64,000 bases of DNA from Patescibacteria group bacterium (GCA_049322615.1 JBMORX010000010.1:89416-153415), one strand, 5' to 3'. Positions 3,001 through 57,929 are shown, numbered from the stretch's first letter. Notes: generated from the sequence alone by a model not told the origin. A program made the numbers and translations.

Positions 3001-6000
3001 TTTTTCACTTGGTGCCGTCGTCCCAATTCCCACATTCCCTAAATTATTAACCGTCAGAGCCGGTGTCCAGGCATTGACTCCGGATTTGTAGTCAAGAGTT
3101 AAAAGTCCAGCATTTCTTGGTCTGACTGCTCCTCCCGAAGCAAGATACAGATTTCCAGAAACTGAAGCATCTCCAGAAACATCAAGTTTAGCTAAAGGCG
3201 AGGTGGTCCCAATTCCAATCTGTCCGCCTGTTTCATAAATTATGGAATCGGTTAAAGATGAAGAAGTACTCCATTTGGGAAGGTAGTTTTGTGTTCCCGA
3301 ACCAGAAACCCCACTTGCTCCTGAAGCCACTGCCTTCCAAGAAGAACCATCACAATAGTAGTATTCATCTTGGGCATTGTCATAGTACATTTTCCCTTCA
3401 GAGGAAGCATCACAGGTTCCCGCATAGGCCTGAACTTGGGGTCCTAGAGCTAAAGTCCCAGAAATAGTGGCGTCTTCTGCCAAAGTCAGGTCATTGGCAA
3501 TATAGGTATTGTGAGCCACAATCCCGTTGGCAACAAAGTTGGCGGTATTGGCAATCTGAAGATCATAGACATGTTTTTTACCAGCAGGCTTGATAGAGAC
3601 AATTTTCTCCCACTTGACCCCGCTATATTCCTTAGCATTCGCCTTTTTAATACTATTCGTATACGGCTCATGCTGCGGATTTACGGGGTCTGCGCCCTGT
3701 ACCGAGAAGGGAACTTGGTGGTGGGGCTTGACATCACCTAATTTACTTGTGGTAGAATGATTATCGATGGGAGAGTTAAAAGGAGAACCCAAAGTATATT
3801 CGGAATTTTTCACTAACGGAGCAGTCGCTTGGCTTTCAGCTGGGGTAATTGCGCCCTTATTTGCCAGAACATTAGGAATGAAGGAGGTAATTGCTTCTTT
3901 GATTTCTATTTCTTCTTGTATATTGTTTTTAAAATTAGCCTCTGATTTTAGCAAGGAGGGTCGATGATTGCTGATAATATTTTGATTGCCTACAGTATTG
4001 GAGTGATTATGAGTAGTATTATAATTATTTATGCCTACTTTCGCTTGAAAAAGTGAGGAATTATGAGTATTGAGACTATTGTTTATATCTTGGCGATTAT
4101 TTTCGGGGTGATTGCTTTCTATATTGCCTTCTTCAAGGTGCGTTAAGTTGGCAACCGCTATTTCTTCCCTTTCTTTTAAGAAAATAACTTTCTTCCACCC
4201 ATCAGGCGTTAGGTACGGGTGATTTCCGGTGGTTTCGATCCTTTTGCCTGATTCGGTTTTTAACTCATAAACTTCCTGAATGCCTTTGTCCAGAGTTTTT
4301 TCCACTTTCTGCCAGGCAAATTCTCCAGTATTTTCGTTTAAGGACAAAACTCTGTCTCCAGGTTTAACATCCTTTATTTGTTTATTTGACATTTGACATT
4401 TGACATTTGACATTTGACATTGTGCTACAGGCACTAAGCTATCCTCGGCCACACATTCTCCTGCTACATGGAGTTTTTTGGAAGGCCCCGTCGTCCCGAT
4501 GCCGACGTTGCCGGTATTGATCCAGGAATTGTTACCAGATGTACCAGTGAGTTTTACTAAAGCCGAGGAGGTAGCCGTTGCTCCAAGCAAAACATCATCA
4601 GTGATATTGGTGGGGGAGAGTGCTTGGGCATTTCTTTGCCAATAGCCCGAGGTTCCGGAAGAAGGAGAGTAGATGTTATTGGCATACAAAGCATTCCAAT
4701 ACAAAGATGAAGAACCCAGGTTTCTTGTCCCCGTTGCCTCGGGAGTAATATCTCCAGCTACCTGTAATTTTGAACCAGGACTTGTCGTCCCGATGCCGAC
4801 GTTGCCGCTAATATACGTGTCCCCGTTACCTAAGATTGAAAGTCCTTTCCCAGTTGTATAATCTGAAAGTGTTACTGCATTATGAGTTGCATCACCTTCA
4901 CCCTTAATAATCCATTCTCCATAAGCAGCAGGCCCGATGAAATAATTATCCGAATCAGAGTGGCGAAAATAATCTACATATAGACTGCTCCAGTGACTTG
5001 TAGACAGACCCAAATGTCGGTTGGCGCCAGAAGGAAGGATATGACCTGCTGCTTGGATACTACCCAAAACATCCAGCTTTTGACCCGGATTCGTCGTCCC
5101 GATGCCGACATAACCTTGTTCGGTCATTACCATTCCCGTTGTCCAGGCATCGGCTCCAGATTTATAGGCAAGTTGGAGTGGTCCGTAGGCAGGTCTAATG
5201 GTTTGTCCTTGACCAATGGTTAGGGTTCCAGACATTGAAGCATTGCCGGTAGTTCCTTCAAAATAGAGTTTGGCAGAAGAAGTGGCGGTTCCCCCAATGG
5301 CGACTGATTCGTAAGTGTTGTTGGGATAAATAACTCCACTGGTCTTTGTCCAATATCCTGAAGTTCCACTCGAGCCGCCATAGATATTATTGACATAAAG
5401 ATTATTCCAGTAAAGTGAAGTAGAACCTAAATCGTAAGTGTTTCCAGAGGAGGGAATGAGATTTGAGGCGACGTTGGCGTTTAAAGTTAAGTTTCCGGCT
5501 AAGGTTAAGGCGTTAAGGTTACCAGTGCCAGAGGAATTGATATAATAGGTGGTTCCGCCGCCAACGCTGATTCCCGCTGATGAGACAATATAAGACGCTG
5601 ATTGTTCGCCGATATCCAAAGAAACACCGCCAGCGCCGGTAATATCGCCGCCGGAAACGGTAATATCACCAGTAAAATAAGAACCAGTGGTATTGGCCCG
5701 AAGAATACCGGCGGCTGAGGCATTGCCGCTATAGTCAACTGTAAACTTAGGAGAAGGCGTCGAGCCGGATTCAAGTTTTAAAAGATTTAAATTGGTATTA
5801 TTGTTGGCTACCGAGCCATATAAAAGAGTATTTGCTTCTCGACCGCCTGATGAGCCGAGATTAGCATCGGTGGCGCTTATCACATTTCCCGTCCCGCCTG
5901 ACAAAGTTAGGTTTAGCACTCCGGAGCCATCGGGTGCTATGGCAATATTGCCGTTGGTGCCGGTATCGGTCACAATCGAGAGCGCCTGACCTCTAATTTG

Positions 6001-6843
6001 AAAAGTGCCTGAAGTTGACCAAATCTTGGGCGAGGCAGAAGCGATAATTAAATTACCTGCCGGATTAATGGCCGGGACAGTTCGGACCGTCGCCCCCATG
6101 GTCGCCGTCGGCTCGGCATTGGTAGCTGAAGCCAGAGGAAATCCTTGCAACGTTTCCGCGTTTAAGGCATAACCGACAGTGGCGATTTGAATTCTTGGAG
6201 TGGCTTCGGAGTCTGAACCAACGGTTATCCCAAGCCAGACCGAGGCGTTTTCCGAAAAAACCGAAGAGGCAATCGCCCCTCCGCAATCAGAGCCCAAAAT
6301 GGTGTTAAAAATTCCATCCTCATCGGGGTCAATTGAGCAGGTGCCCGAATCCCAAAGAGTATTCCCGCCAGAGGAGGCATCATAAAGTCTAAATCTCATG
6401 TTGGTGGCGGTCGTAATCGGAGTATTTGCCGAGTCAGTCAGCCTGCCCTGAAAAGAAAGATAGCGGTTGGGGACAACCGGGGCGGCCGGATAGGCAAGTT
6501 TTTCCGGAGCCTTTTGGATAAACTGCTGGTAAATGCCAAAGCCTAAAGCCGCCAGAAAGATGATTAAGATTAGAAAGTTTAAATAAGTGAAGTAGGGAAG
6601 AGCACGGTAGGCGCGAAGCGGAAGCTTCGCTTTAGAAATTAGTAATTTGTAATTAGTAATTAGAGAAGCCTTTTGGATAAAAGGATTCTCTTTAAGGTAT
6701 CCTTCTCTCACTGCCCAGGAAAAGAACTTTCGCAGCGAGGATTCTTTTCTTTTAAGGCTTTTGGCAGAGGCCCCCCGCATTGCCAGGTATTGGCGGAAAG
6801 TTTTTAGGGTATTTTTATCTATTTTTTGCCAAAAATTAGTCAT
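1..6843 (-). CDS. Giant surface protein (>2,280 aa), partial: the C-terminus lies beyond the window start. Reading from its N-terminus, the domains are a phage-integrase N-terminal SAM-like (core-binding) domain, a transmembrane helix, and a long extracellular region of tail-fibre-like GNVGIGTTSP repeats. It carries two Hint/intein insertions.
   Basis: Start ATG at 6843..6841 overlaps the TGA of the upstream gene (ATGA). I translated the minus strand from 6843 to about 6430 (MTNFWQKIDKNTLKTFRQYLAMRGASAKSLKRKESSLRKFFSWAVREGYLKENPF..., then the TM helix YFTYLNFLILIIFLAALGFGIY), and 4500..660 and 420..1 continuously without stops. The recurring GGCAACGTCGGCATCGGGACGAC (GNVGIGTT) codons at 204, 690, 2397, 4512 and 5115 are all in the same frame relative to 6843. 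The ORF track misses it, probably because no stop lies inside the window. Confidence 0.78.
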   Translation of the reverse strand, partial: MTNFWQKIDKNTLKTFRQYLAMRGASAKSLKRKESSLRKFFSWAVREGYLKENPFIQKASLITNYKLLISKAKLPLRAYRALPYFTYLNFLILIIFLAALGFGIYQQFIQKAPEKLAYPAAPVVPNRYLSFQGRLTDSANTPITTATNMRFRLYDASSGGNTLWDSGTCSIDPDEDGIFNTILGSDCGGAIASSVFSENASVWLGITVGSDSEATPRIQIATVGYALNAETLQGFPLASATNAEPTATMGATVRTVPAINPAGNLIIASASPKIWSTSGTFQIRGQALSIVTDTGTNGNIAIAPDGSGVLNLTLSGGTGNVISATDANLGSSGGREANTLLYGSVANNNTNLNLLKLESGSTPSPKFTVDYSGNASAAGILRANTTGSYFTGDITVSGGDITGAGGVSLDIGEQSASYIVSSAGISVGGGTTYYINSSGTGNLNALTLAGNLTLNANVASNLIPSSGNTYDLGSTSLYWNNLYVNNIYGGSSGTSGYWTKTSGVIYPNNTYESVAIGGTATSSAKLYFEGTTGNASMSGTLTIGQGQTIRPAYGPLQLAYKSGADAWTTGMVMTEQGYVGIGTTNPGQKLDVLGSIQAAGHILPSGANRHLGLSTSHWSSLYVDYFRHSDSDNYFIGPAAYGEWIIKGEGDATHNAVTLSDYTTGKGLSILGNGDTYISGNVGIGTTSPGSKLQVAGDITPEATGTRNLGSSSLYWNALYANNIYSPSSGTSGYWQRNAQALSPTNITDDVLLGATATSSALVKLTGTSGNNSWINTGNVGIGTTGPSKKLHVAGECVAEDSLVPVAQCQMSNVKCQMSNKQIKDVKPGDRVLSLNENTGEFAWQKVEKTLDKGIQEVYELKTESGKRIETTGNHPYLTPDGWKKVIFLKEREEIAVANLTHLEEGNIESNHPENNRQDINNSLNTHNSSLFQAKVGINNYNTTHNHSNTVGNQNIISNHRPSLLKSEANFKNNIQEEIEIKEAITSFIPNVLANKGAITPAESQATAPLVKNSEYTLGSPFNSPIDNHSTTSKLGDVKPHHQVPFSVQGADPVNPQHEPYTNSIKKANAKEYSGVKWEKIVSIKPAGKKHVYDLQIANTANFVANGIVAHNTYIANDLTLAEDATISGTLALGPQVQAYAGTCDASSEGKMYYDNAQDEYYYCDGSSWKAVASGASGVSGSGTQNYLPKWSTSSSLTDSIIYETGGQIGIGTTSPLAKLDVSGDASVSGNLYLASGGAVRPRNAGLLTLDYKSGVNAWTPALTVNNLGNVGIGTTAPSEKLDITGNLRVNGNGTDNYLELMRDPNVDFRIISTDNPVYGLAFKNQQSGAYPFRINSSATSDSLVLSSGNVGIGTTSPGAKLEIAGTAWLRGATGTTGLFVNSSGNVGIGLTNPGSALQVAGDITPEATGTRNLGSSSLYWNALYANNIYSPSSGTSGYWQRNAQALSPTNITDDVLLGATATSSALVKLTGTSGNNSWINTGNVGIGTTSPAQKLHVEGQCVTGDSLLPIVATEDTKILRDYDTKSENKKEKSPNISFVQIKDIKGGELVLSLNEKTGKIEPAKIKGLLDMGVKPVYRLTTEDGRQIRTTGNHPYLVRNWQDLLKESNIKQEQSDYGQTKSNSGSGVNIENINFVFGAHNNFLKTNATPKENIPSNTSVVKTNNFLLPFSLAKLGTISTTPNQPADKLTNRSDTIDSQIGSTPLIKNNLSEENSFVNAEWTKVIYLRPGMEIATADTSDGDPKGLLRGGGIGSRVKWAKIASIEYVGEEQVYDIEVEGTHNFVANGIVAHNTYILNDLTLAEDATISGTLSLGPQVQAYAGTCNAAAEGKMYYDNAADEYYYCNGSSWKAVASGASGVSGSGTQNYIPKWSTSSTLTDSILYETGSQIGIGTTSPLATLDIAGSASASGNLTFRGSGTAHLINLYDNGSLQIGNSVGGGTATPAFVVTSAGNIGIGTTGPTYKLEVAGTGYFNGGGIYASSGFLSVSDGNPVLTYSSRKAFLPNAAIITADSAVGAASIPLIIKGTSGQTGDLTQWQNSDGGVLSVVDKSGNVGIGTTSPSQKLDIAGNATISGTLGFGPNAPAYAGTCNASNKGKQYYDGTDDKMYYCNGTSWIVMGTSSSLSGTGTQNYIPKWSGSTTLTDSIIYETGSQIGIGTTSPLAKLDVSGDASVSGNLYLASGGAVRPRNAGLLTLDYKSGVNAWTPALTVNTVGNVGIGTTGPGSFKLNVDDPGAGSPSKYPLRLQNSLGAETLDFEIETVAVGRHEILSSGSLAFGTGGT
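1468..2340 (-). other. Intein / Hint-domain insertion 1 (291 aa) within the giant protein. It runs from Cys1 (codon 2340..2338) to the terminal Asn of VAHN (codon 1470..1468), with Thr at +1.
   Basis: Translation reads ...NTGNVGIGTTSPAQKLHVEGQ|CVTGDSLLPIVATEDTKILRD...TTGNHPYLV...VYDIEVEGTHNFVANGIVAHN|TYILNDLTLAEDATISGTL. Textbook intein blocks are present: A (C-x-x-x-D-S-L), B (TTGNHPY) and F/G (NFVANGIVAHN), followed by T. The central linker has no LAGLIDADG or HNH motif. Confidence 0.75.
3508..4455 (-). other. Intein / Hint-domain insertion 2 (316 aa), at the homologous site of the duplicated module. It runs from Cys1 (codon 4455..4453) to Asn (codon 3510..3508), with Thr at +1.
   Basis: Translation reads ...GIGTTGPSKKLHVAGE|CVAEDSLVPVAQCQMSNVKCQMSNVKCQMSNKQ...TTGNHPYLT...HVYDLQIANTANFVANGIVAHN|TYIANDLTLAEDATISGTL. 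The central region is N/S/H-rich and low-complexity, with no endonuclease motifs. Confidence 0.75.
4387..4421. repeat. Perfect 5x TGACATT heptanucleotide tandem repeat inside intein 2 of the giant gene. It encodes the QMSNVKC repeats.
   Basis: Sequence at 4387-4421 is tgacatt x5. Seven is not a multiple of three, so a +/-1 unit change shifts the reading frame. Confidence 0.9.
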
Positions 6844-9218: not shown

Positions 9219-9611
9219 ATGTCAAATCTCAAAACTCAAAACCAAAACTTAAATCTTAAATCTAATTTAAAATATAGAGCATACAAATTTTCTTTAATGG
9301 TCATAAAATTTGTTAGTGGTTTTCCCGAAAAGAAGATTTACTGGATAATAGGTGATCAGCTTCTAAGAGCAGCCACTAGCATCGGAGCGAACATAATTGA
9401 GGCTCAAGCCTCGAGCTCAAAAAGAGAATTTATAAAGTATTACGAAATTGCTCTTAAGTCTGCCAATGAAACAAAATACTGGCTTTGCCTGTTAAGAGAT
9501 GGCAATTTAGTTAACAAAGAGGAGGTAGGCAGGATTTTAAAGGAGGCAGAAGAGATAAGTAATATGCTCGGCTCTAGCCTTTTAACCCTTAAGGGAAAGA
9601 AAAAGTTTTGA
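9219..9611 (+). CDS. Four-helix-bundle protein (classic short form, 130 aa).
   Basis: Contains QLLRAATSIGANIIEAQASSSKREFIKYYEIALKSANETKYWLCLLRD, which matches the S23 IVS / four-helix-bundle family pattern from memory. Confidence 0.65.
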   Translation: MSNLKTQNQNLNLKSNLKYRAYKFSLMVIKFVSGFPEKKIYWIIGDQLLRAATSIGANIIEAQASSSKREFIKYYEIALKSANETKYWLCLLRDGNLVNKEEVGRILKEAEEISNMLGSSLLTLKGKKKF

Positions 9612-9621
9612 CATTTTACAT

Positions 9622-10569
9622 TTAGTTTTGCCATTTGCGATTTGCCTTTTGAGTTTCTCTTCTAAGCATCACATAAGCAATAATGGCGATTATCAAAATC
9701 TCGGTTATTATAATTCCCTCGGGCGTAGTTAAAAACCTGACAAGCCACCAAAACAAGTTTGTCAGAAAAGCGATTATTTTCTCAATGAGCATTCTCCACC
9801 AAGACAAAACATCAAAAACCAAAGTCGTGCTTTTGGGAGAAGGATTGTTTAAGAAAATTGAGCCGACAAAAACCCGATTTTTGCCTAATTCTTCTGTTGG
9901 GAGATTAAATTGATAAAAACCATTTTGGTCGCTTAAAACCTTTGGTTTGGGAACTTCGGCGGCCAGGGCAGGAGTAATTAGTAATTGGTAATTAGTAATT
10001 AGGGGAAGACGGAAGCGGGCTTGCCCGCCCAAAGTCGCTCCGTGAGTCGTGTTCGAATAGAACCCAAAGACGAACGGTAAGACTGGGCGGGGTTTTTCTT
10101 CGAAAAGATAGGGGACAACCTCGGAATTTGGGGTGGTGTAGCCTTGGGCGGGAACTGTTTCTCCTTTGGCGATTTTTCCCTTCGACAAGCTCAGGGTCGG
10201 CGGCATGACGACCTCTTTGATTAAGATATCAAATTCCGGCGGTGGAGGAGCAAGACAAAGAGGGTGGGAGGAAATGTTTGAGACATCGGTGGCGATTAGA
10301 CAAAACGGTGTCAGGGTTCGGGGGAGGGCGATTCTGAAGGTAAACTTGCCTTGGTCATCGGCAGTGGTAATTCTTTTTATTACTTGTTCCATCGTCAATT
10401 CAACTTGGGCAAAGGGAGAAGTCCAGCCAGTCAGCTCAAGCCACCACCAGTAAGGAACAGTGGCCGTCACCTGGACGGATTCAGTCGCCAACGCCGGTCT
10501 ATTAAAGAAAGAAGAAAGGAGAAAGAAGAGAAAAGAAAGAAGTAATAAACAAAGTTTGTTGCTTCGCAC
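9622..10569 (-). CDS. Hypothetical surface or membrane protein with an N-terminal signal/TM segment and a C-terminal TM anchor (315 aa).
   Basis: N-terminus is MRSNKLCLLLLSFLFFLLSSFF (the same MRSNKLCL start as the rplA ORF extension). C-terminus is ...IITEILIIAIIAYVMLRRETQKANRK. Confidence 0.5.
   Translation of the reverse strand: MRSNKLCLLLLSFLFFLLSSFFNRPALATESVQVTATVPYWWWLELTGWTSPFAQVELTMEQVIKRITTADDQGKFTFRIALPRTLTPFCLIATDVSNISSHPLCLAPPPPEFDILIKEVVMPPTLSLSKGKIAKGETVPAQGYTTPNSEVVPYLFEEKPRPVLPFVFGFYSNTTHGATLGGQARFRLPLITNYQLLITPALAAEVPKPKVLSDQNGFYQFNLPTEELGKNRVFVGSIFLNNPSPKSTTLVFDVLSWWRMLIEKIIAFLTNLFWWLVRFLTTPEGIIITEILIIAIIAYVMLRRETQKANRKWQN
10023..10097 (+). ncRNA. Conserved structured RNA motif, copy A. 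A GC clamp stem (GCCCGCCC/GGGCGGGG plus a U-tract) encloses the core CGCTCCGTGAGTCGTGTTCGAATAGAACCCAAAGACGAACGGTAAGAC. It lies antisense inside ORF 9622..10569.
   Basis: The core shares a 15-nt identical block (GTGTTCGAATAGAAC) and flanking similarity with the 5' leader motif at 57128-57199. The inner helix co-varies (CCGT/ACGG here versus CCTT/AAGG there). Confidence 0.4.
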
Positions 10570-10577
10570 TTTCTTTT

Positions 10578-10596
10578 GACAGGGTCCGTCCCTGTC
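10578..10596. repeat. REP-like palindromic hairpin GACAGGGTCCGTCCCTGTC, copy 1, flanking the IS200-like tnpA.
   Basis: Perfect 7-bp stem with a TCCG loop. Identical copies lie at 10790-10808 and 11301-11319. Confidence 0.8.
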
Positions 10597-11281
10597 ACCC
10601 TTCGATTATAAGATTTCCCAGCATCTCTCTGGGATCTTCTTGATAATCTTCAATAAAACTTTGATAGGAGAGAATGTCTTTTAGCGAGGTGCGGCGAGCA
10701 GTCTTAAAGAAAGAGAGAATTGGTTCTGGATTAATCCAGATGGCTTTTTTCTTTCCTAAATAGTAGGGGTAACTTGAGTATGGCCAATTGACAGGGTCCG
10801 TCCCTGTCAACTCGGCGGGGTTAAGGTGAAGATAGCGAGAAAGATGAAGAAGATACGGTTCTTCAAGGACGAGTACCGCTTTGTAATTTCCCTGAAAAAG
10901 ATAACCATTTCGTTTGTATTTGCGGTTAAAATACATAGCATAATTTGTTAGGAGTCGCCTTAAAAGTTTAGTCATGCCGTTGGAGGTCTTTTGCGTCAGA
11001 AGAAGATGGAAATGGTTTGGCATAAGACAATAGGCGAGAAGTTGTAACTCTTGGCTTAAAGAGGAGGAGAAATCCCTTATTCTTGTTGGTTTAAAACCAG
11101 TAATTTCTCCAAGGGGATGGGTAAAGTTTGTTTTTGGGGGCGAAAGATAGAATTTTAAGAAATGGAGGAAAACTCGGTAGTCTTGGTCGTCAAGAAAAAT
11201 ATCTCGTTTTTCAATTCCGCGATTATAAACATGATAGTGGCCGTTTTCAATGTAGACCTTAATGCGGTTTTTGGCAGGCAT
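10595..11281 (-). mobile_element. tnpA: IS200/IS605-family (Y1 HUH, RAYT-like) transposase gene bracketed by cognate hairpins.
   Basis: 228-aa ORF with HYHVYNRG, the HUH motif MPNHFHLL, and GYLFQGNYKAV (catalytic Tyr). GACAGGGTCCGTCCCTGTC hairpins lie just outside both ends (10578-10596, 11301-11319), and a third lies in frame inside the ORF (10790-10808, encoding TGTDPV). Confidence 0.8.
10790..10808. repeat. REP-like hairpin copy 2 (inside the tnpA coding sequence).
   Basis: GACAGGGTCCGTCCCTGTC. Confidence 0.8.
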
Positions 11282-11328: not shown

Positions 11329-12321
11329 TTAGGTGGTTTTCTCTTTGGGGGTCTCTTCTTCAAGTTCTTCTTTTTCTTTTTGGCGCCGGCGGAGAAAAAG
11401 GACAATAAGAATAGCGATGACAATCGCCAAGACTATCGCCAGGGCGATCCTGACTGGAAAAACAACAAAGTAGAGGGTGGCAAGCAAAACCTGACCGGTC
11501 GTTCCATAAGAAGCCGATAAATCTGCCCGATAGCGACCCAAAAGATATTTAGCGTTCCAGGTATTTTGATAGATAAAAGAGGCACTGGGAAAAATATTTC
11601 TTTCCTCAAGGGGCATAACCGTGGTTACTTTACCCAACATATTTCTGACCGTAATCGTCCCCTTTGGGGCAAGATGCAAATCAGAGAGATTTAAAATCTC
11701 CGTGGTGAACTTAACCGGTCCAAATTCTAAAAACTTTGGGGCGTCGAATAATTTGACTAAAGCCCGTTCTGTTACCGGTCCTTCAACCGTAAAATAAACC
11801 AAAGTTCCAACCACTTGCTGAATAGCGGTACCGGCCCCCGTACCCGCCCCAATTCGGGGGGGAGTCCCTTTTGACTGATATAAAACTCCGGCATAATGTC
11901 CTCCAGGTAGGGCATCCAAAGGAACGTTAGCGGAGACAACGATATTAACTGTTTGTTTTGGAGCAACTGCCACTGAAGTTGGGGAAAGTCTAATCCAGGA
12001 AGAAGCCGCCCAGCGACCAGAAACTTGGGCGCCGACAAACTCCGGAGTTCCGGCGGTATCCTTGACAATAAAATCCTTGGCAACGACGGCTAGGTAGGCA
12101 GTCTCGTCTCCTTCATTTCGAAATTGAATAGTTTTTTGAACAAACTCTCCGGGCTTGACTTTGACTTCTAAACGAGGAGGAATGGCGGTAAAAATCTGGG
12201 TCTGCGCCCGCGCGAAGCGCGGAATAAGCAAATAAGCAAATAAGCAAATGACAAATAAGCCAATAATAAGAAATTTGAAATTTGAAATTTGAAATTTGAA
12301 ATTGATTTGTTTATTTGACAT
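11329..12321 (-). CDS. C-terminally membrane-anchored surface protein B1 (330 aa). It has a signal peptide, a beta-rich ectodomain, a C-terminal TM helix and a charged tail.
   Basis: MSNKQINFKFQISNFKFLIIGLFVICLFAYLLIPRFARAQ... then IPPRLEVKVKPGEFVQKTIQFRNEGDETAYL... and a C-terminal ALAIVLAIVIAILIVLFLRRRQKEKEE. It is a paralog of 14433..15452. The architecture is reminiscent of DUF916-type anchor proteins of WxL loci (from memory, unverified). Confidence 0.6.
   Translation of the reverse strand: MSNKQINFKFQISNFKFLIIGLFVICLFAYLLIPRFARAQTQIFTAIPPRLEVKVKPGEFVQKTIQFRNEGDETAYLAVVAKDFIVKDTAGTPEFVGAQVSGRWAASSWIRLSPTSVAVAPKQTVNIVVSANVPLDALPGGHYAGVLYQSKGTPPRIGAGTGAGTAIQQVVGTLVYFTVEGPVTERALVKLFDAPKFLEFGPVKFTTEILNLSDLHLAPKGTITVRNMLGKVTTVMPLEERNIFPSASFIYQNTWNAKYLLGRYRADLSASYGTTGQVLLATLYFVVFPVRIALAIVLAIVIAILIVLFLRRRQKEKEELEEETPKEKTT
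12271..12298. repeat. 4x AAATTTG heptanucleotide tandem repeat within codons 6-16 of B1, followed by three 8-nt TTGCTTAT units that form the signal-peptide core.
   Basis: aaatttg x4 at 12271-12298 encodes the NFKFQISNFKF segment on the minus strand. Confidence 0.85.
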
Positions 12322-15473: not shown

Positions 15474-16268
15474 TTAGTAGGTTGGTGTTGCCACAAAAAT
15501 AATATAGTTCTCATAATCTCCCGCCGCCTGGCTTCCCGAGATATTGACTTTATAAGTAACCGTTCCCACCCTATTTTTGCCCACCTGGGAACTTGACATG
15601 ACTATGCTTGGGTCCTCTGAGGCTGCCAAAGAGGGAAAAGGACGAAAATAAGTAGAGTTGACAAAAGTCGCCGGAATATCTTGTCCTTGCATATTATAGC
15701 CAAAACCATACTTAGTATTATCTGTCCAAGGCTGGGCCGTGGTTTCATCGCAGGTTTGGGCTCCACCATTACAGGTAGTATCGGAAATAGTGGCTGTTCC
15801 TGCCAGGGTTTTTAAGGTATCACTTTCTCGGGCGGTCACCTGATAGCCGCCGGCGCCACCGGCGGAAACAGTTAAAGTATTGGTTTGGGTTGAGGGTGTC
15901 CCTGGAGTTAAAGTGCCAAAATCAATAGATAAATCAGAGATTGTAAACCGGAAAGGGATGATGGACTTAAGATACCAAAAACCGCTTCTTACCTTGTATC
16001 CAGTTGAAGTGTAGAGTCCGGGAGCAGTCTGCCCGCCGGTGACCCCAAGTTTATAACTTGAGGAAGTGGGTAGCCCGGCGCCCATATTGACATTGCCCAT
16101 CTGGATTTTATAAGAATCGGAAGATAAGTTCTCGGCGCGAGCGCCTCGAGTAATAAGCAAATAAGCAGAGCTTGTTGCTACGCAATAAGCAAATAAGCAA
16201 ATAAGCAAATAAGCAAATAATTTGAAATTTGAAATTTGAAATTGATTTGACATTTGCTTATTTGACAT
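15474..16268 (-). CDS. Secreted surface protein A2 (264 aa), paralog of A1, with the C-terminus SGSQAAGDYENYIIFVATPTY.
   Basis: The N-terminus MSNKQMSNQFQISNFKLFAYLLICLFAYCVATSSAYLLITRGARA is encoded largely by tandem 7/8-nt repeats. The body is Thr/Gly-rich. Confidence 0.6.
   Translation of the reverse strand: MSNKQMSNQFQISNFKLFAYLLICLFAYCVATSSAYLLITRGARAENLSSDSYKIQMGNVNMGAGLPTSSSYKLGVTGGQTAPGLYTSTGYKVRSGFWYLKSIIPFRFTISDLSIDFGTLTPGTPSTQTNTLTVSAGGAGGYQVTARESDTLKTLAGTATISDTTCNGGAQTCDETTAQPWTDNTKYGFGYNMQGQDIPATFVNSTYFRPFPSLAASEDPSIVMSSSQVGKNRVGTVTYKVNISGSQAAGDYENYIIFVATPTY
16221..16241. repeat. 3x TTTGAAA heptamer tract in the A2 5' coding region. It is flanked by 4x AATAAGCA octamers (16170-16210) and GACATTT heptamers (16244-16280) around the start codon.
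   Basis: Read directly at 16170-16280. Confidence 0.85.
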
Positions 16269-22740: not shown

Positions 22741-23622
22741 ATGAATCAAAAATTCAAATATTTCCTGGCTGTTTTAGGGTTAATCGCTGCTTTGTTGGCT
22801 GGAGCGATAACTTCCTTTCCCGACCAAAATCTTCATCTTGTCTTCTGTGATGTTGGTCAGGGAGATGCCACTCTTTTGGTTCGGGGGACAACCCAAGTTC
22901 TGGTTGATGGTGGTCCTTCGGATAAAGTCTTGGGCTGTCTTTCAAAACACTTGCCTTTTTGGGATAGAGATTTGGAGATGGTCATTTTAACTCACCCAGA
23001 ATCTGATCACCTAACTGGCTTGGTCTCTGTTATAGAAAGATATGGTGTGAAGCAGTTAATCAGTAATTCGCTGCTTGCCGATAGTGGGGTTTTTAGCAAA
23101 TTTAGGGAAAAAGTGATAGAAGAGAAAATTCCGGTTTTCTCCCCGAAATCTGGAGACAAAATTAAAATTGGCAACCTGGAAATTAAGATTTTATATCCTT
23201 TGGAGAAATTGGGAGAGGAAATTGTCTGGAAATCTTCGGAAACCCCCCAAGTTTTAGGGATTTCAACCTATCCTGGCAATTTTAATGAGACCGCCATCGT
23301 CTCCGAGATAAATTTTGGGAATTTCAAAGTTCTTTTAACCGGAGATATTGGGGTGGAGGAAGAAAATCAGCTTCAGACTGAGCCTGTCGAAGTCTTGAAA
23401 GTCGCTCATCATGGCAGCAAATACTCAACTTCTCAAGAATTCTTAGAGAAAATCTCGCCAGAACTGGCAATAATTTCCGTTGGCGCTACCAACCGCTACG
23501 GTCACCCGGCAAACGAAGTGCTGAAGAGATTAAGAAATTTAGATATTAAGATATTAAGAACAGACTTAGATGGGGAGATTGAGATTATAAGCGACGGAAA
23601 GGGTTGGAAGGTTAGAGATTAA
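22741..23622 (+). CDS. comEC: ComEC C-terminal metallo-beta-lactamase-fold domain, as a separate ORF.
   Basis: HLVFCDVGQGDATLLVRGTTQVLVDGGP...ILTHPESDHLTGL (MBL HxHxDH motif). The 440-bp gap back to the channel ORF is filled by R2 and R3. Confidence 0.75.
   Translation: MNQKFKYFLAVLGLIAALLAGAITSFPDQNLHLVFCDVGQGDATLLVRGTTQVLVDGGPSDKVLGCLSKHLPFWDRDLEMVILTHPESDHLTGLVSVIERYGVKQLISNSLLADSGVFSKFREKVIEEKIPVFSPKSGDKIKIGNLEIKILYPLEKLGEEIVWKSSETPQVLGISTYPGNFNETAIVSEINFGNFKVLLTGDIGVEEENQLQTEPVEVLKVAHHGSKYSTSQEFLEKISPELAIISVGATNRYGHPANEVLKRLRNLDIKILRTDLDGEIEIISDGKGWKVRD
23530..23558. repeat. Partial copy (inverted) of the CTTAATATCTTAATATC element, in frame within the comEC-C ORF (encodes LRNLDIKILRT).
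   Basis: gaaatttagatattaagatattaagaac. The reverse complement shares 18 nt with the 33-nt element in rnhB and fmt. Confidence 0.6.
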
Positions 23623-30650: not shown

Positions 30651-31241
30651 ATGCTGCCTAAATACAAATACCTTTTGACTTACCGTTATGCCGAAATTAT
30701 TCAGGACGGAACAAACGATTTTTGTCTAAGACACTTAAGTGACTTAAGAAACTTAAGAATTCCTACGAGGCGGACTGTCGAGCAGATGACGCAAAGCGGC
30801 CGGAGTCTGAAACAAAATATTATTGAGGCAGTAAGCGATAGTCTGACTTCGAAAAAAACCGAGATTAAACTTTTGGGAGTAGCCTACGGTTCGGTTGAAG
30901 AATTGATTGCCGATTTTGAAGATTTTTTAAGACAAAGAAACCTGCAAATTTGGCCGAAAACAGATAAGCGAGTCTTAATCTTTCGTCGACTTGGGTATCG
31001 CTTAAGTAACCTAAGTAACCTAAGTAACCTAAGTAACCTAAGTAACTTAGGAAACTTAAAAGAAAAACTAGTTTTACCGGAAAATCCCGAAGAAGCGGCC
31101 AATTTACTTTTGACTTTGTGTCACATGGAGAGTTATCTTTTAAGTTGTCAAATTAAAGCGGCGGAAGAAAAATTTATCAAAGAAGGCGGCTACACGGAAA
31201 ACTTGTTTAAAAAGCGCCTTGAAAGTAGAATACTTAAGTAA
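30651..31241 (+). CDS. Four-helix-bundle protein with suffix (196 aa). It contains an in-frame tandem repeat.
   Basis: RRTVEQMTQSGRSLKQNIIEA...EGGYTENLFKKRLESRILK. An internal 5x 12-nt repeat AAGTAACCTAAG (31002-31056) encodes LSNLSNLSNLSNLGNL. Confidence 0.55.
   Translation: MLPKYKYLLTYRYAEIIQDGTNDFCLRHLSDLRNLRIPTRRTVEQMTQSGRSLKQNIIEAVSDSLTSKKTEIKLLGVAYGSVEELIADFEDFLRQRNLQIWPKTDKRVLIFRRLGYRLSNLSNLSNLSNLSNLGNLKEKLVLPENPEEAANLLLTLCHMESYLLSCQIKAAEEKFIKEGGYTENLFKKRLESRILK
31002..31056. repeat. 5x 12-nt tandem repeat (CTTAAGTAACCT-type) inside the four-helix-bundle gene. Further CTTAAG-containing repeats lie at 30740-30770 and 31232-31265.
   Basis: cttaagtaacctaagtaacctaagtaacctaagtaacctaagtaacttagga. 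Confidence 0.85.
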
Positions 31242-34341: not shown

Positions 34342-35109
34342 ATGAAAGCTGATATCTTGGGAGTAAAAATTGACAATTTGAAAGAGAAAGAGGTAATTTA
34401 CGCGGTGCGTAAAAAGATAGCCAAAAAAGAGAAATTTTGGATTGCTACCCCTAATCCGGAGATGATAGTTCTGGCGCAAAAAGATTTGCAATTTAAAAGA
34501 ATTTTAAATTCTGCTGATTTGGCTATTCCAGATGGAATAGGTTTAGTTTGGGCGGGAAGAATTTTGGGGAGAGAGATAAGAGAGCGGGTAAGTGGGGTGG
34601 ATTTAATGGAAAAACTTTGTCAGGTGGGAAGCCAAAATGGCTGGAGTGTTTATTTAATTGGGGGGAAGCCAGAGGTGGCGAAAACGGCGCTTGAGGTTTT
34701 AAAAAAGCGCTATCCGGGCTTGAAAGGCTGGGCGGAAACAGGACCTGAATTAGAAGTGGGAAGTGGGAAATGGGAAGTGGGAAGAAAGAAGGGCGGAGTG
34801 GGAAGTGGGAAGTGGATAGAGAAAATAAATCAAAAAGAACCCACAATCCTTTTTGTTGGTTTTGGCATGGGCAAGCAGGAAAGATGGGTGGCAAAATATT
34901 TTGATATATTAAATATTGGGGGAGCAATGGTGGTTGGGGGCGCTTTTGATTTTATTTCTGGAAGAGCGCTCCGAGCGCCGATCCTGATCCAGGACTTGGG
35001 TCTTGAGTGGCTTTGGAGGTTAATCCAGGAGCCTTGGCGGATTAAAAGACAGTTGGCACTTGGCAGATTTGTTTTTTTGGTTTTGAAAGAGAGACTTTCT
35101 TTACTATAA
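34342..35109 (+). CDS. WecB/TagA/CpsF-family glycosyltransferase (N-acetylmannosaminyltransferase-like).
   Basis: ADLAIPDGIGLVWAGRILG...YLIGGKPEV...FVGFGMGKQERW. An in-frame insert of GGGAAGT 7-nt repeats at 34746-34812 encodes LEVGSGKWEVGRKKGGVGSGKW. The same GGGAAGT/GAGAAGT repeats occur intergenically at 33845-33885. Confidence 0.78.
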   Translation: MKADILGVKIDNLKEKEVIYAVRKKIAKKEKFWIATPNPEMIVLAQKDLQFKRILNSADLAIPDGIGLVWAGRILGREIRERVSGVDLMEKLCQVGSQNGWSVYLIGGKPEVAKTALEVLKKRYPGLKGWAETGPELEVGSGKWEVGRKKGGVGSGKWIEKINQKEPTILFVGFGMGKQERWVAKYFDILNIGGAMVVGGAFDFISGRALRAPILIQDLGLEWLWRLIQEPWRIKRQLALGRFVFLVLKERLSLL

Positions 35110-56878: not shown

Positions 56879-57090
56879 ACTCCCGCTTTTAAATTTGCCC
56901 CGTCCTTTGCTCTTCTTGACAAAATTCCGCACGTGCCAGATTTTGTCAAGAGGATACGATTACCCCTAGCCTTGCATATTTTATGCCGATCGGCTCAAAA
57001 TAAGTAGTAGGAGCACCGAGGAAGAAGTTTAAGAAATCTTAAAATTTTCCGGGAAGATTTGATTATTTTAATCTATTAGTATATAATACG

Positions 57091-57128
57091 ACCTAGATTT
57101 AGCCTCTGCGTAAGCAGAGGCTTTTCTT
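57091..57128 (+). terminator. Rho-independent terminator.
   Basis: agcctctgcgtaagcagaggcttttctttg. Perfect 9-bp stem with a GTAA loop, followed by a T-run. Confidence 0.8.
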
Positions 57129-57199
57129 TGCCCTCCTAAGATCGCCCCTTGAGCCGTGTTCGAATAGAACTGAGAAGGCGAAAGGGAAGATCAGGAGGG
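57128..57199 (+). promoter_or_regulatory. Structured 5' leader (conserved RNA motif, copy B). The anti-SD CCCTCCT (57131-57137) pairs with the SD AGGAGGG (57193-57199) and encloses the core CGCCCCTTGAGCCGTGTTCGAATAGAACTGAGAAGGCGAAAGGGAAGATC.
   Basis: The SD is 10 nt upstream of the ATG at 57210. The core is homologous to 10031-10080, with compensatory changes. Confidence 0.5.
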
Positions 57200-57209
57200 T
57201 TGATGGCTT

Positions 57210-57929
57210 ATGAGAGAACAAATTCTTGCTTTAGTAACTCTTGCTTCGACCACGCTAAGCGTGGTTTCTTCGGCCGTGGGACCACTGGTTTCTCCTGTGC
57301 CTGAAGTTCAGGTTTTGGCAGAGCACACTTTAGATTTAGGGACAAGAAACAAAAATCCCTTTGTTAATGAAGTTTTCGCGGATAATATTCTTCTGGCGCT
57401 TCATTATTTTAAAGGAGATGCAGATGGTTTTAAACTGGATCCGGAGAAATCCGGACCAGGTAATATTAACTGGGAAAAAGTCAGGGAGCCATTTGAGTCT
57501 GTCTTGGTTTTACAGGCAGGAGAAATTTTTGCCTTTCATGGTTTTCTTCTTAGGGAGTATCAAGGTTTGAATGTCAAAACTGGCAAGACAAAATACACCC
57601 ATAGCGAAGGATATAAAACCGTTGGGGGACTTCCGGGAAACGGCGTTTGTCATCTTGCCTCTCTTATAAACTGGACTGCCTCTGGGGCCAGCCTCGCTCT
57701 AGACGGCGAGTCTAGGCGGACTGGACTTGAAGTGGTTTCCAAAGTGAACCACAACTTTCTTCCTGTTCCTGGTGTACCTCGCGAGTTTGGTACTTCAATC
57801 CGATACAGTCCAAATGGGGCAAGAAACAGTCAAAATCAAAATCTTTATATTAGAAATAATTTAGGCATCCCGATTACTTTTGTTTTTAGAGCTAATTCTT
57901 CCTCGGTTACTCTGATGATTGTTCAGTAG
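57210..57929 (+). CDS. Secreted hypothetical protein (239 aa).
   Basis: Signal peptide MREQILALVTLASTTLSVVSSAVGPLVSP. No recognised motif. Confidence 0.45.
   Translation: MREQILALVTLASTTLSVVSSAVGPLVSPVPEVQVLAEHTLDLGTRNKNPFVNEVFADNILLALHYFKGDADGFKLDPEKSGPGNINWEKVREPFESVLVLQAGEIFAFHGFLLREYQGLNVKTGKTKYTHSEGYKTVGGLPGNGVCHLASLINWTASGASLALDGESRRTGLEVVSKVNHNFLPVPGVPREFGTSIRYSPNGARNSQNQNLYIRNNLGIPITFVFRANSSSVTLMIVQ

Follow-up and report, generated by a model that had tools for sequence, protein, structure and literature searches.

A covarying ~70-nt hairpin dispersed in Microgenomates genomes, probably a small non-autonomous mobile element

Three copies of one hairpin in a Patescibacteria contig

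We analyzed a 64,000-nt stretch from a Patescibacteria group bacterium (GCA_049322615.1, JBMORX010000010.1:89416-153415; hereafter the window), in which a hairpin element of about 70 nt occurs three times (Table 1). Copy 1 lies antisense within an open reading frame (ORF), as an earlier note on this DNA had correctly described; it is in frame, and the ORF encodes a 315-aa protein (ORF315). Copy 2 sits between a conserved leader hairpin and the ATG of a VanW-like gene. Copy 3, in sense orientation and in frame, occupies the end of a non-conserved linker of ~190 residues in a mini-intein, which is itself enclosed in a surface-protein ORF that stays open on the minus strand from 6873 to position 1. 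The earlier note knew the first two copies and read them as an intrinsic terminator and as a translational riboregulator or RNA thermometer, respectively. We propose that all three are probably copies of a small, non-autonomous, dispersed mobile element of the Microgenomates, in the candidate phyla radiation (CPR).

The shared core on which the earlier note was built is real: TGAGYCGTGTTCGAATAGAAC…GNCGAA is matched exactly at copies 1 and 2 and in 0 of 100 shuffles, and both copies share the longer form TGAG-Y-CGTGTTCGAATAGAAC…G-N-CGAA. Both fold into stable hairpins (copy 1, -35.1 kcal/mol, z -3.7; copy 2, -36.2 kcal/mol, z -4.8), and the compensatory differences reported between them are present in the outer stem (CCCGCCC/GGGCGGG versus GCCCUCCU/AGGAGGGU) and the inner helix (CCGU/ACGG versus CCCUU/AAGGG), to which we add a covarying P4 (GUC/GAC versus GCC/GGC). 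Copy 3 was found with a covariance model (E~1e-15) and carries a compensated P5, AUAC/GUAU instead of GUUC/GAAC. A filter-free search of the window with the same model gave nothing scoring between 15 and 64 bits.

All three copies form one irregular hairpin with helices P1 to P5 and purine-rich, near-invariant loops. P1 has 7-8 bp of the form CCNCC/GGNGG and is followed by an A-rich 5' bulge (J1/2, AAA) and P2; an internal loop GC/UAAG, adjoined by U·U or A-U, separates P2 from P3; a near-invariant U-A pair and tandem G·A/A·G follow P3; P4 is GNC/GNC and leads through an asymmetric loop GU/UGAAAA into P5, which is closed by C-G and capped by the apical loop GAAUA. Copy 3 may extend further 5', and the GTCAAG of this possible extension is repeated at 3618-3613; the same upstream arrangement (GTCAAG, GC hairpin, GCGCA) is found 5' of copies at four loci elsewhere (L008, L020, L026 and L045; loci outside the window carry L numbers).

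Table 1. Coordinates of the hairpin copies, their host genes and neighboring features in the window
Feature	Position	Strand	Remarks
Copy 1 of the hairpin element	10024..10091	+	P1 CCCGCCCA/UGGGCGGG; core 10043-10074; model match 82.1 bits; fold
Copy 2 of the hairpin element	57130..57200	+	P1 GCCCUCCU/AGGAGGGU; core 57150-57182; model match 92.7 bits; fold
Copy 3 of the hairpin element	3616..3690	-	P1 GACCCCG/CGGGGUC; model match 64.8 bits
Possible 5' extension of copy 3	3691..3732	-	GTCAAG, ~30-nt GC hairpin, GCGCA
ORF315, host gene of copy 1	9622..10569	-	315-aa secreted, membrane-anchored protein; no Pfam match; copy in hypervariable linker
Mini-intein 1, host of copy 3	3508..4455	-	C…VAHN↓T; Pfam Intein_splicing/PT-HINT on matches; intein alignment
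Sigma-70-like promoter	57059..57087	+	TTGATT-17-TATAAT; upstream of copy 2; TATAAT conserved in orthologues
GC hairpin with U-run	57101..57122	+	Kept in 3/3 element-free orthologous leaders
VanW-like gene	57210..57929	+	Downstream of copy 2
Y1_Tnp (IS200/RAYT-like HUH) gene	10595..11281	-	Candidate trans-acting factor only; no flanking copies
Second Y1_Tnp-like gene	42474..43121	-	34% identical to the first; candidate only

The hairpin belongs to a large, covarying family

A degenerate pattern with P5 held fixed found 46 loci in contigs of one genome per species, often several per genome and mostly in Levy-, Roizman-, Gottesman- and Curtissbacteria. Some of the metagenome-assembled genomes (MAGs) bear other labels; since the locus in one labeled "Gammaproteobacteria" (L005) is almost identical to that of a Levyibacteriota MAG (L035), at least some of these taxon labels are unreliable. 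The covariance model was built from this set and applied to the window and the other loci, where it also picked up divergent copies. A metagenome scan that left P5 free gave at least 120 stretches, and 90 copies were registered in 80 metagenome loci searched with the model. The earlier claim of a conserved structured element with compensatory stem changes is borne out: further copies exist, one in the window and others in genomes and metagenomes, and their helices covary.

In the genome alignment, 84.6% of cells are paired and 170 double-sided changes occur, compared with 61±7 in shuffles; sliding the register lowers the paired fraction to 26-47%. The independent metagenome alignment is 91.0% paired and holds 396 double-sided changes (118±8.5 in shuffles), affecting 21 of 24 pairs. 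P5, left free in that scan, is 99.7% paired with 4/4 pairs covarying, and the U-A pair beside the tandem G·A becomes C-G in eight copies. Across ~140 further copies from Microgenomates MAGs and metagenomes, compensatory changes are seen in all five helices, and the loops are near-invariant across the whole clade. With two independent covarying alignments, the structure is therefore very well supported. In a few relatives, the outer part is retained and P4/P5 are swapped for a plain GC hairpin.

The family is undescribed as far as the searches made here reach. Rfam 15, whose scan the earlier note had suggested, gave no family at gathering threshold at either of the first two sites and only chance-level matches at E≤10; the core sequence was found in no paper of the searched literature, and searches on structured or palindromic repeats of Microgenomates and Patescibacteria returned nothing relevant. 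Viral contigs gave 0 matches. We also considered a hammerhead core, a K-turn or C/D box, boxA/boxB, a T-loop and group II domain V, which shares GAGCCGU; on inspection these were dropped because the covarying pairing is incompatible with them or their defining nucleotides are missing, and no Rfam match supports them.

Loci orthologous to the sites of copies 1 and 2 lack the element

At the site of copy 1, 20 orthologues of ORF315 (49-73% identical) lack exactly the 22 residues encoded by the element, and the gene order around ORF315 is conserved in relatives. The T-run after copy 1, which had suggested an intrinsic terminator on the strand opposite to the ORF, is the complement of conserved Glu-Glu-Lys codons that are also present in element-free orthologues, and a terminator scan made no call there; the terminator reading of copy 1 is not supported. 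An alternative 72-nt register fits the ORF315 junction equally well. One junction register, together with the RNase P P3 case described below, had suggested that the 3' arm of P1 is a pre-existing target sequence; we rejected this idea because the orthologues of the second site have no GGAGG-like sequence and the 72-nt register fits the first site too.

The linker that hosts copy 1 is variable in its own right. Heptamers TAATTAG/TAATTGG within it encode LITNYQLLIT, and orthologues carry heptamer-repeat versions of other lengths at the same place, which suggests that the linker is slippage-prone and possibly phase-variable. Tandem 7-9-mer repeats are very common in the window, at 9972-10003 and in intergenic regions throughout (for example 12212-12257, 16173-16226, 23518-23568, 31003-31061, 34753-34824 and 46503-46595). 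Between a Big_1 gene and ORF315 lies a 23S_rRNA_IVP (Avd-like four-helix-bundle) gene (9219-9611, plus strand), itself a lineage-specific insertion since it is absent from the syntenic loci L047-L050.

At the second site, three orthologous loci (L051-L053; VanW-like proteins 56-66% identical) show TATAAT, the GC hairpin with its U-run, ~10 nt and the ATG, and lack both the element and any GGAGG or other Shine-Dalgarno (SD) sequence. The copy 2 hairpin, including the supposed SD, is therefore a lineage-specific insertion. The GGAGG at 57194-57198, 11 nt 5' of the ATG at 57210, is indeed paired within P1, so the SD/anti-SD clamp described earlier exists as pairing; it came with the insertion, however, because the orthologues without the element also lack GGAGG and use no SD. 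The "strong terminator" reported 5' of copy 2 likewise exists as a hairpin with a U-run, but it is a conserved leader feature downstream of the promoter. A scan of this region agrees in placing a promoter-like site at 57059-57087 and the hairpin at 57101-57122. In all four genomes (57059-57212; L051 2440-2505; L052 2450-2503; L053 2455-2503), the VanW-like gene shares a compact leader consisting of a -10 box, a terminator-like GC hairpin with a U-run and an ATG 7-13 nt further on, with no SD; judged from its layout, this looks like the terminator of the upstream gene seated inside the very short leader of the downstream one.

No close orthologue that could serve as an empty site was found for the intein that hosts copy 3. 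The surrounding ORF is giant and repetitive (>2,290 codons, running off the window) and holds two mini-inteins, at 3508-4455 and 1468-2340, inserted at one repeat motif, KLHV[A/E]G[E/Q]↓C … VAHN↓TYI; both have long low-complexity linkers at the position usual for a homing endonuclease. Near its N-terminus the ORF encodes LITNYKLLIS, similar to the LITNYQLLIT of ORF315.

Landing sites, orientation and flanks

Orientation and neighborhood were counted on 134 non-redundant copies, and occurrence in ORFs on 141. Relative to protein genes the orientation is random, with 19 copies in the same and 18 in the opposite direction in tandem contexts; tandem, convergent and divergent contexts number 37, 12 and 11. 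Among 258 neighboring proteins, which are unrelated housekeeping genes, no family recurs. Flanks beyond P1 hold ≤0.25 bits per position, so that the unit ends at P1 (5'-RYCC…GGRY-3'), and the flank profile contains no promoter, U-run, target motif or conserved foot tetranucleotide. On the 3' side the flank profile is rich in A, and T makes up 0.12-0.27 of positions +1 to +4.

Six of the 141 copies are in frame and stop-free within long ORFs of five different proteins, five of them antisense. Antisense frames lack stop codons more often than sense frames do, with 1.82 versus 1.19 open frames (1.26 and 0.89 in shuffles). Other copies occupy stable-RNA loci. At L011, a class-A RNase P RNA (72.9 bits, E 4e-22) has the element as its P3 stem-loop. 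The 23S-5S spacers of L002 and L015 each contain a copy; one copy stands before and the other after a conserved segment of the spacer, which makes these two insertions independent. Several copies lie between co-oriented tRNA genes, and a few, at L024 and L029 among them, end 10-12 nt 5' of a start codon.

Inverted doublets occur at L030, L079 and L112. We considered whether paired copies enclose an autonomous partner and set this aside, the enclosed genes being unrelated to one another; at L112 (662-1069), the gene between the two inverted copies encodes ribosomal protein L33 (809-985), with tRNA-Thr adjoining. Target-site duplications were likewise discarded as a general feature: none is seen overall, and the GTCAAG repeats and long flank duplications, such as those of 38 nt at L037 and ~23 nt at L042, are confined to subsets. 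At L042 (~6420-6570), the duplication spans the start codon of a peptidyl-tRNA hydrolase gene together with its first seven codons; the element seems to have inserted near the beginning of this ORF and to have duplicated its start.

At L007 (3200-3400, minus strand), a tRNA-like 5' half (GGAGATGTGCCGGAGCGGTTGAAC…) directly 3' of the element matches a 3' end (…TCCTCCATCTCCGCCC); the halves enclose ~170 nt with a complete tRNA-Ser, possibly a case of a tRNA gene split by a large insertion. Large insertions occur in the 23S rRNA genes of the Microgenomates at L015 (134-353, 480-2108) and L002 (1-1920); that at L015 measures ~800 nt, and L015 has an upstream group I intron match as well. The window itself holds a 91-nt inverted repeat (26222-26312/51794-51884; 92% complementary) whose arms are 25 kb apart, one of them beside a tRNA gene (51691-51761).

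Evidence for and against mobility

One near-identical variant of the element recurs in unrelated contexts. Copies at L013 and L016, in different genomes, are 99% identical and share no similarity in the 400 nt on either side; in five more pairs, the element is 82-90% identical and the flanks are unrelated. Together with the empty orthologous sites, the random orientation and the lack of a recurrent neighbor, this is what a dispersed mobile element would produce. The plus strand would fold as a single strand, either single-stranded DNA (ssDNA) or RNA; the excess of G·U over A·C in P1 (61 versus 27) favors this strand as the folded one. Helices P1 to P5 would need only to pair, and the conserved loops would serve as recognition determinants for a trans-acting enzyme; by copying or moving the hairpin, this enzyme would bring it to new sites, with neither a fixed target sequence nor a target-site duplication. 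Copies would then persist where an extra stable hairpin is tolerated, namely in intergenic regions, spacers of rRNA and tRNA operons, peripheral helices of RNAs and, when the frame stays open, permissive protein linkers. The intermediate may be DNA or RNA, and retained copies may in addition benefit the host.

A HUH/Y1-type enzyme is the only candidate seen for this presumed factor. The Y1_Tnp gene next to ORF315 keeps the same operon position upstream of an ORF315 homologue at L047 (81-785) and L048 (2263-2967), with 64-81% identity, and is missing at L049 and L050; it looks like a domesticated gene, not an active insertion sequence (IS). A link by proximity between the element and these genes was tried by searching all loci with the window's Y1 proteins (tblastn) and dropped for want of a flanking arrangement. 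We also considered IVP/Avd-like genes, with a possible link to diversity-generating retroelements: copies lie 270-840 nt from IVP genes at four loci (L037, L044/L046 and L120), but the intervening content differs and there is no consistent architecture, and we dropped this link too.

Several observations weigh against mobility as the whole explanation. No mobilizing gene was identified in the loci. Their 1.26 Mb contain eight Y1_Tnp genes, all without flanking copies, and the shortest distances to a copy are 498, 1430 and 3029 nt. Target-site duplications are not detectable (longest flanking direct repeat 2.75 nt on average, against 2.63±0.21 for mismatched flanks), and no fixed target motif was found in the flanks. 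Copy number is low, with a single locus (L006) found by the fixed-P5 scan in a complete 1.14-Mb Levybacteria chromosome, and stem identity is 0.61 within and 0.62 between genomes, which gives no hint of recent bursts inside a genome. Oriented by the element, GC skew is weakly negative (42 to 66, or 61:39), and two of the three window copies run counter to this trend; we set a replication-strand bias aside as weak. The inner helices show no wobble asymmetry (26 versus 24). Loops are purine-rich, as in functional RNAs, and copies beside stable-RNA genes are biased to the sense orientation, 12 to 3 (p≈0.035). Where loci are orthologous, conservation is higher in the element than in its flanks, which implies selection in place or concerted evolution: the element is 92.8% identical between the orthologous S1-domain genes of L091 and L109, whose flanking coding sequence is 63-65% identical and where a compensatory P4 swap alters an amino acid; 97% between L108 and L110 (flanks 72-85%); and 99% between L024 and L029 (flanks 81%). 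A purely selfish, dead-on-arrival insertion would not show such conservation in place.

Alternative explanations

This conservation at orthologous sites, with the sense bias in stable-RNA operons, leaves a real if modest chance that the hairpin serves the host as well or represents a family of small-RNA genes. In its full form, this explanation makes the element a host-functional structured RNA module or a small stable RNA, whose plus-strand hairpin is bound by a conserved protein or RNase, acts in processing, stability or a ribonucleoprotein, and is kept by purifying selection at each locus with occasional duplication, like tRNA or C/D-box small-RNA genes. Near-invariant loops across a class-level clade in which all five helices covary, purine-rich unpaired positions, the wobble asymmetry of P1, the compensatory swap inside a coding region, the sense bias at rRNA, tRNA and RNase P loci and the rarity of decayed copies, illustrated by the empty score range in the window, would all fit. 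Yet about half of the copies are antisense to both neighbors, those in ORFs are mostly antisense too, no promoter or terminator signal appears in the flank profile, the distribution is patchy with few copies per genome, the inner helices lack the asymmetry of P1, and orthologous loci do without the element while a 99% identical variant stands in unrelated contexts; on balance, we find it doubtful.

The riboregulator or RNA thermometer that the earlier note saw at copy 2, in which P1 hides the SD of the VanW-like gene, is very improbable. The paired GGAGG stands 11 nt before the ATG, the copies at L024 and L029 also end just before a start codon, and in this one genome the insertion may, at most incidentally, affect translation. 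But three orthologues keep the layout of promoter, hairpin and ATG with neither element nor SD, a more distant VanW-like homologue at L040 (41% identical) is not beside the only copy of that locus, and the family as a whole favors no orientation and no gene, occurring also in ORFs, rRNA spacers and RNase P RNA. From its predicted fold, a hairpin of -36 kcal/mol with an 8-bp GC-rich P1 moreover seems too stable to melt at physiological temperature. Still less credible is that the copies are bidirectional or factor-dependent transcription terminators: their GC-clamped stems are stable and often intergenic, and copy 1 is followed by a T-run, but this run consists of pre-existing codons and draws no scan call, 3' flanks are A-rich instead of T-rich, convergent intergenic regions are not enriched, and copies lie inside ORFs, in RNase P RNA and just before start codons. 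Finally, REP/REPIN-type mobility, in which the RAYT-like Y1 transposases of the window move ssDNA hairpins at the replication fork, would agree with the synteny of the first Y1_Tnp gene (as domesticated RAYTs show), the lack of target-site duplications, the inverted doublets, the flank-duplicating arrangements that resemble REPIN clusters and the weak replication-strand bias. Against it stand the Y1 genes without flanking copies, conservation that is apical and not terminal, the opposite of REPINs, the missing tetranucleotide at the hairpin foot, the low copy number, the rarity of doublets and a strand bias that most window copies contradict, and we consider this version improbable.

Relation to known repeat families

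The mobile hairpin proposed here is REPIN-like and Rickettsia palindromic element (RPE)-like in behavior, and different from both in architecture. REPINs are hairpins with compensatory changes, random extragenic spread and flank-duplicating tandem clusters (Bertels and Rainey, 2011; PMC3116915). The element resembles them as a short, non-coding, dispersed ssDNA or RNA hairpin kept by compensatory changes, in its gene-independent intergenic placement, in the duplicated flanks of some copies and in the presence of a synteny-keeping Y1-transposase homologue in its genome. In REPINs, however, the ends (REP 16-mers) are conserved and the middle varies, whereas the element is conserved in its apical 33-nt core and internal loops and variable in its basal helices, and its ends keep only CC/GG, in place of two conserved inverted REP ends. 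REPIN sequences are lineage-specific and form within-genome populations of tens to hundreds of near-identical copies; the element has one class-level core, about 1-4 exact-core copies per genome, and stems no more alike within genomes than between them. RAYT genes are flanked by REPINs, unlike the Y1 genes examined here, and REPINs are extragenic, whereas 4% of the copies of the element are in ORFs and one is inside an RNase P RNA. No REP-like palindromes were found around the Y1 genes of the window.

RPEs, of ~150 bp and in ten families, have about half of their R. conorii copies in ORFs (PMC10969869). Palindromic, both intergenic and in frame in unrelated protein genes, and adding a peptide in tolerant regions, they are a close parallel (PMC10969869). 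By description, the element differs in its length of ~70 nt, its single family and its small and mostly antisense share of copies in ORFs. The hosts, which in both cases have small streamlined genomes, belong to unrelated taxa, Alphaproteobacteria for RPEs and Patescibacteria for the element. RPEs also occur in RNA genes. A fold like that of the element, with several helices, invariant loops and much covariation, is to our knowledge not reported for RPEs.

Classical miniature inverted-repeat transposable elements (Correia/NEMIS, ERIC, BOX, RUP) are likewise small, non-autonomous, RNA-foldable and of incidental effect on their neighbors, but have terminal inverted repeats that match a parent IS and a fixed-length target-site duplication. 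The element has RYCC…GGRY ends, with P1 acting as 7-8-bp inverted ends of weak consensus, no detectable duplication, and no parent IS among the loci examined. The ends of IS200/IS605 and their miniature derivatives (PATEs) come close in another way, being irregular, imperfect hairpins recognized as ssDNA, in which stem pairing outweighs stem sequence, and leaving no target-site duplication. These elements, by contrast, carry a pair of unlike subterminal hairpins, choose sites 3' of a conserved tetra- or pentanucleotide and are strongly biased to the lagging-strand template; the element described here consists of a single hairpin, lacks a target motif and is weakly strand-biased.

Discussion

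CPR genomes are small and poorly understood, and neither Rfam nor the searched literature yielded a dispersed family of structured repeats for them. The family described here, probably a mobile one, marks sites that tolerate insertion, among them proteins, an intein, RNase P RNA and rRNA operons. It also calls for caution in motif-discovery pipelines, as covariation next to an SD can mimic a riboswitch-like leader.

More tentatively, the element may be a structure-specified replicator, or a domesticated module, of a new kind: a mobile single-strand fold whose loops are read by a Microgenomates factor and which comes under purifying selection where it has landed. Such a replicator would move without terminal repeats, target motif or target-site duplication, and would be retained even where it serves as P3 of RNase P RNA or runs antisense through an S1-domain gene that looks essential. 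If true, this would mean either a host-level role in DNA or RNA, for example in processing, priming or protein recruitment, or a new mechanism of transposition or retro-insertion. As a defined substrate, the element could help to find the enzyme that recognizes it, and its probable mobility, combined with unusually strong conservation in place, bears on the debate over whether REPIN-like elements live as parasites or as lasting partners of the host.

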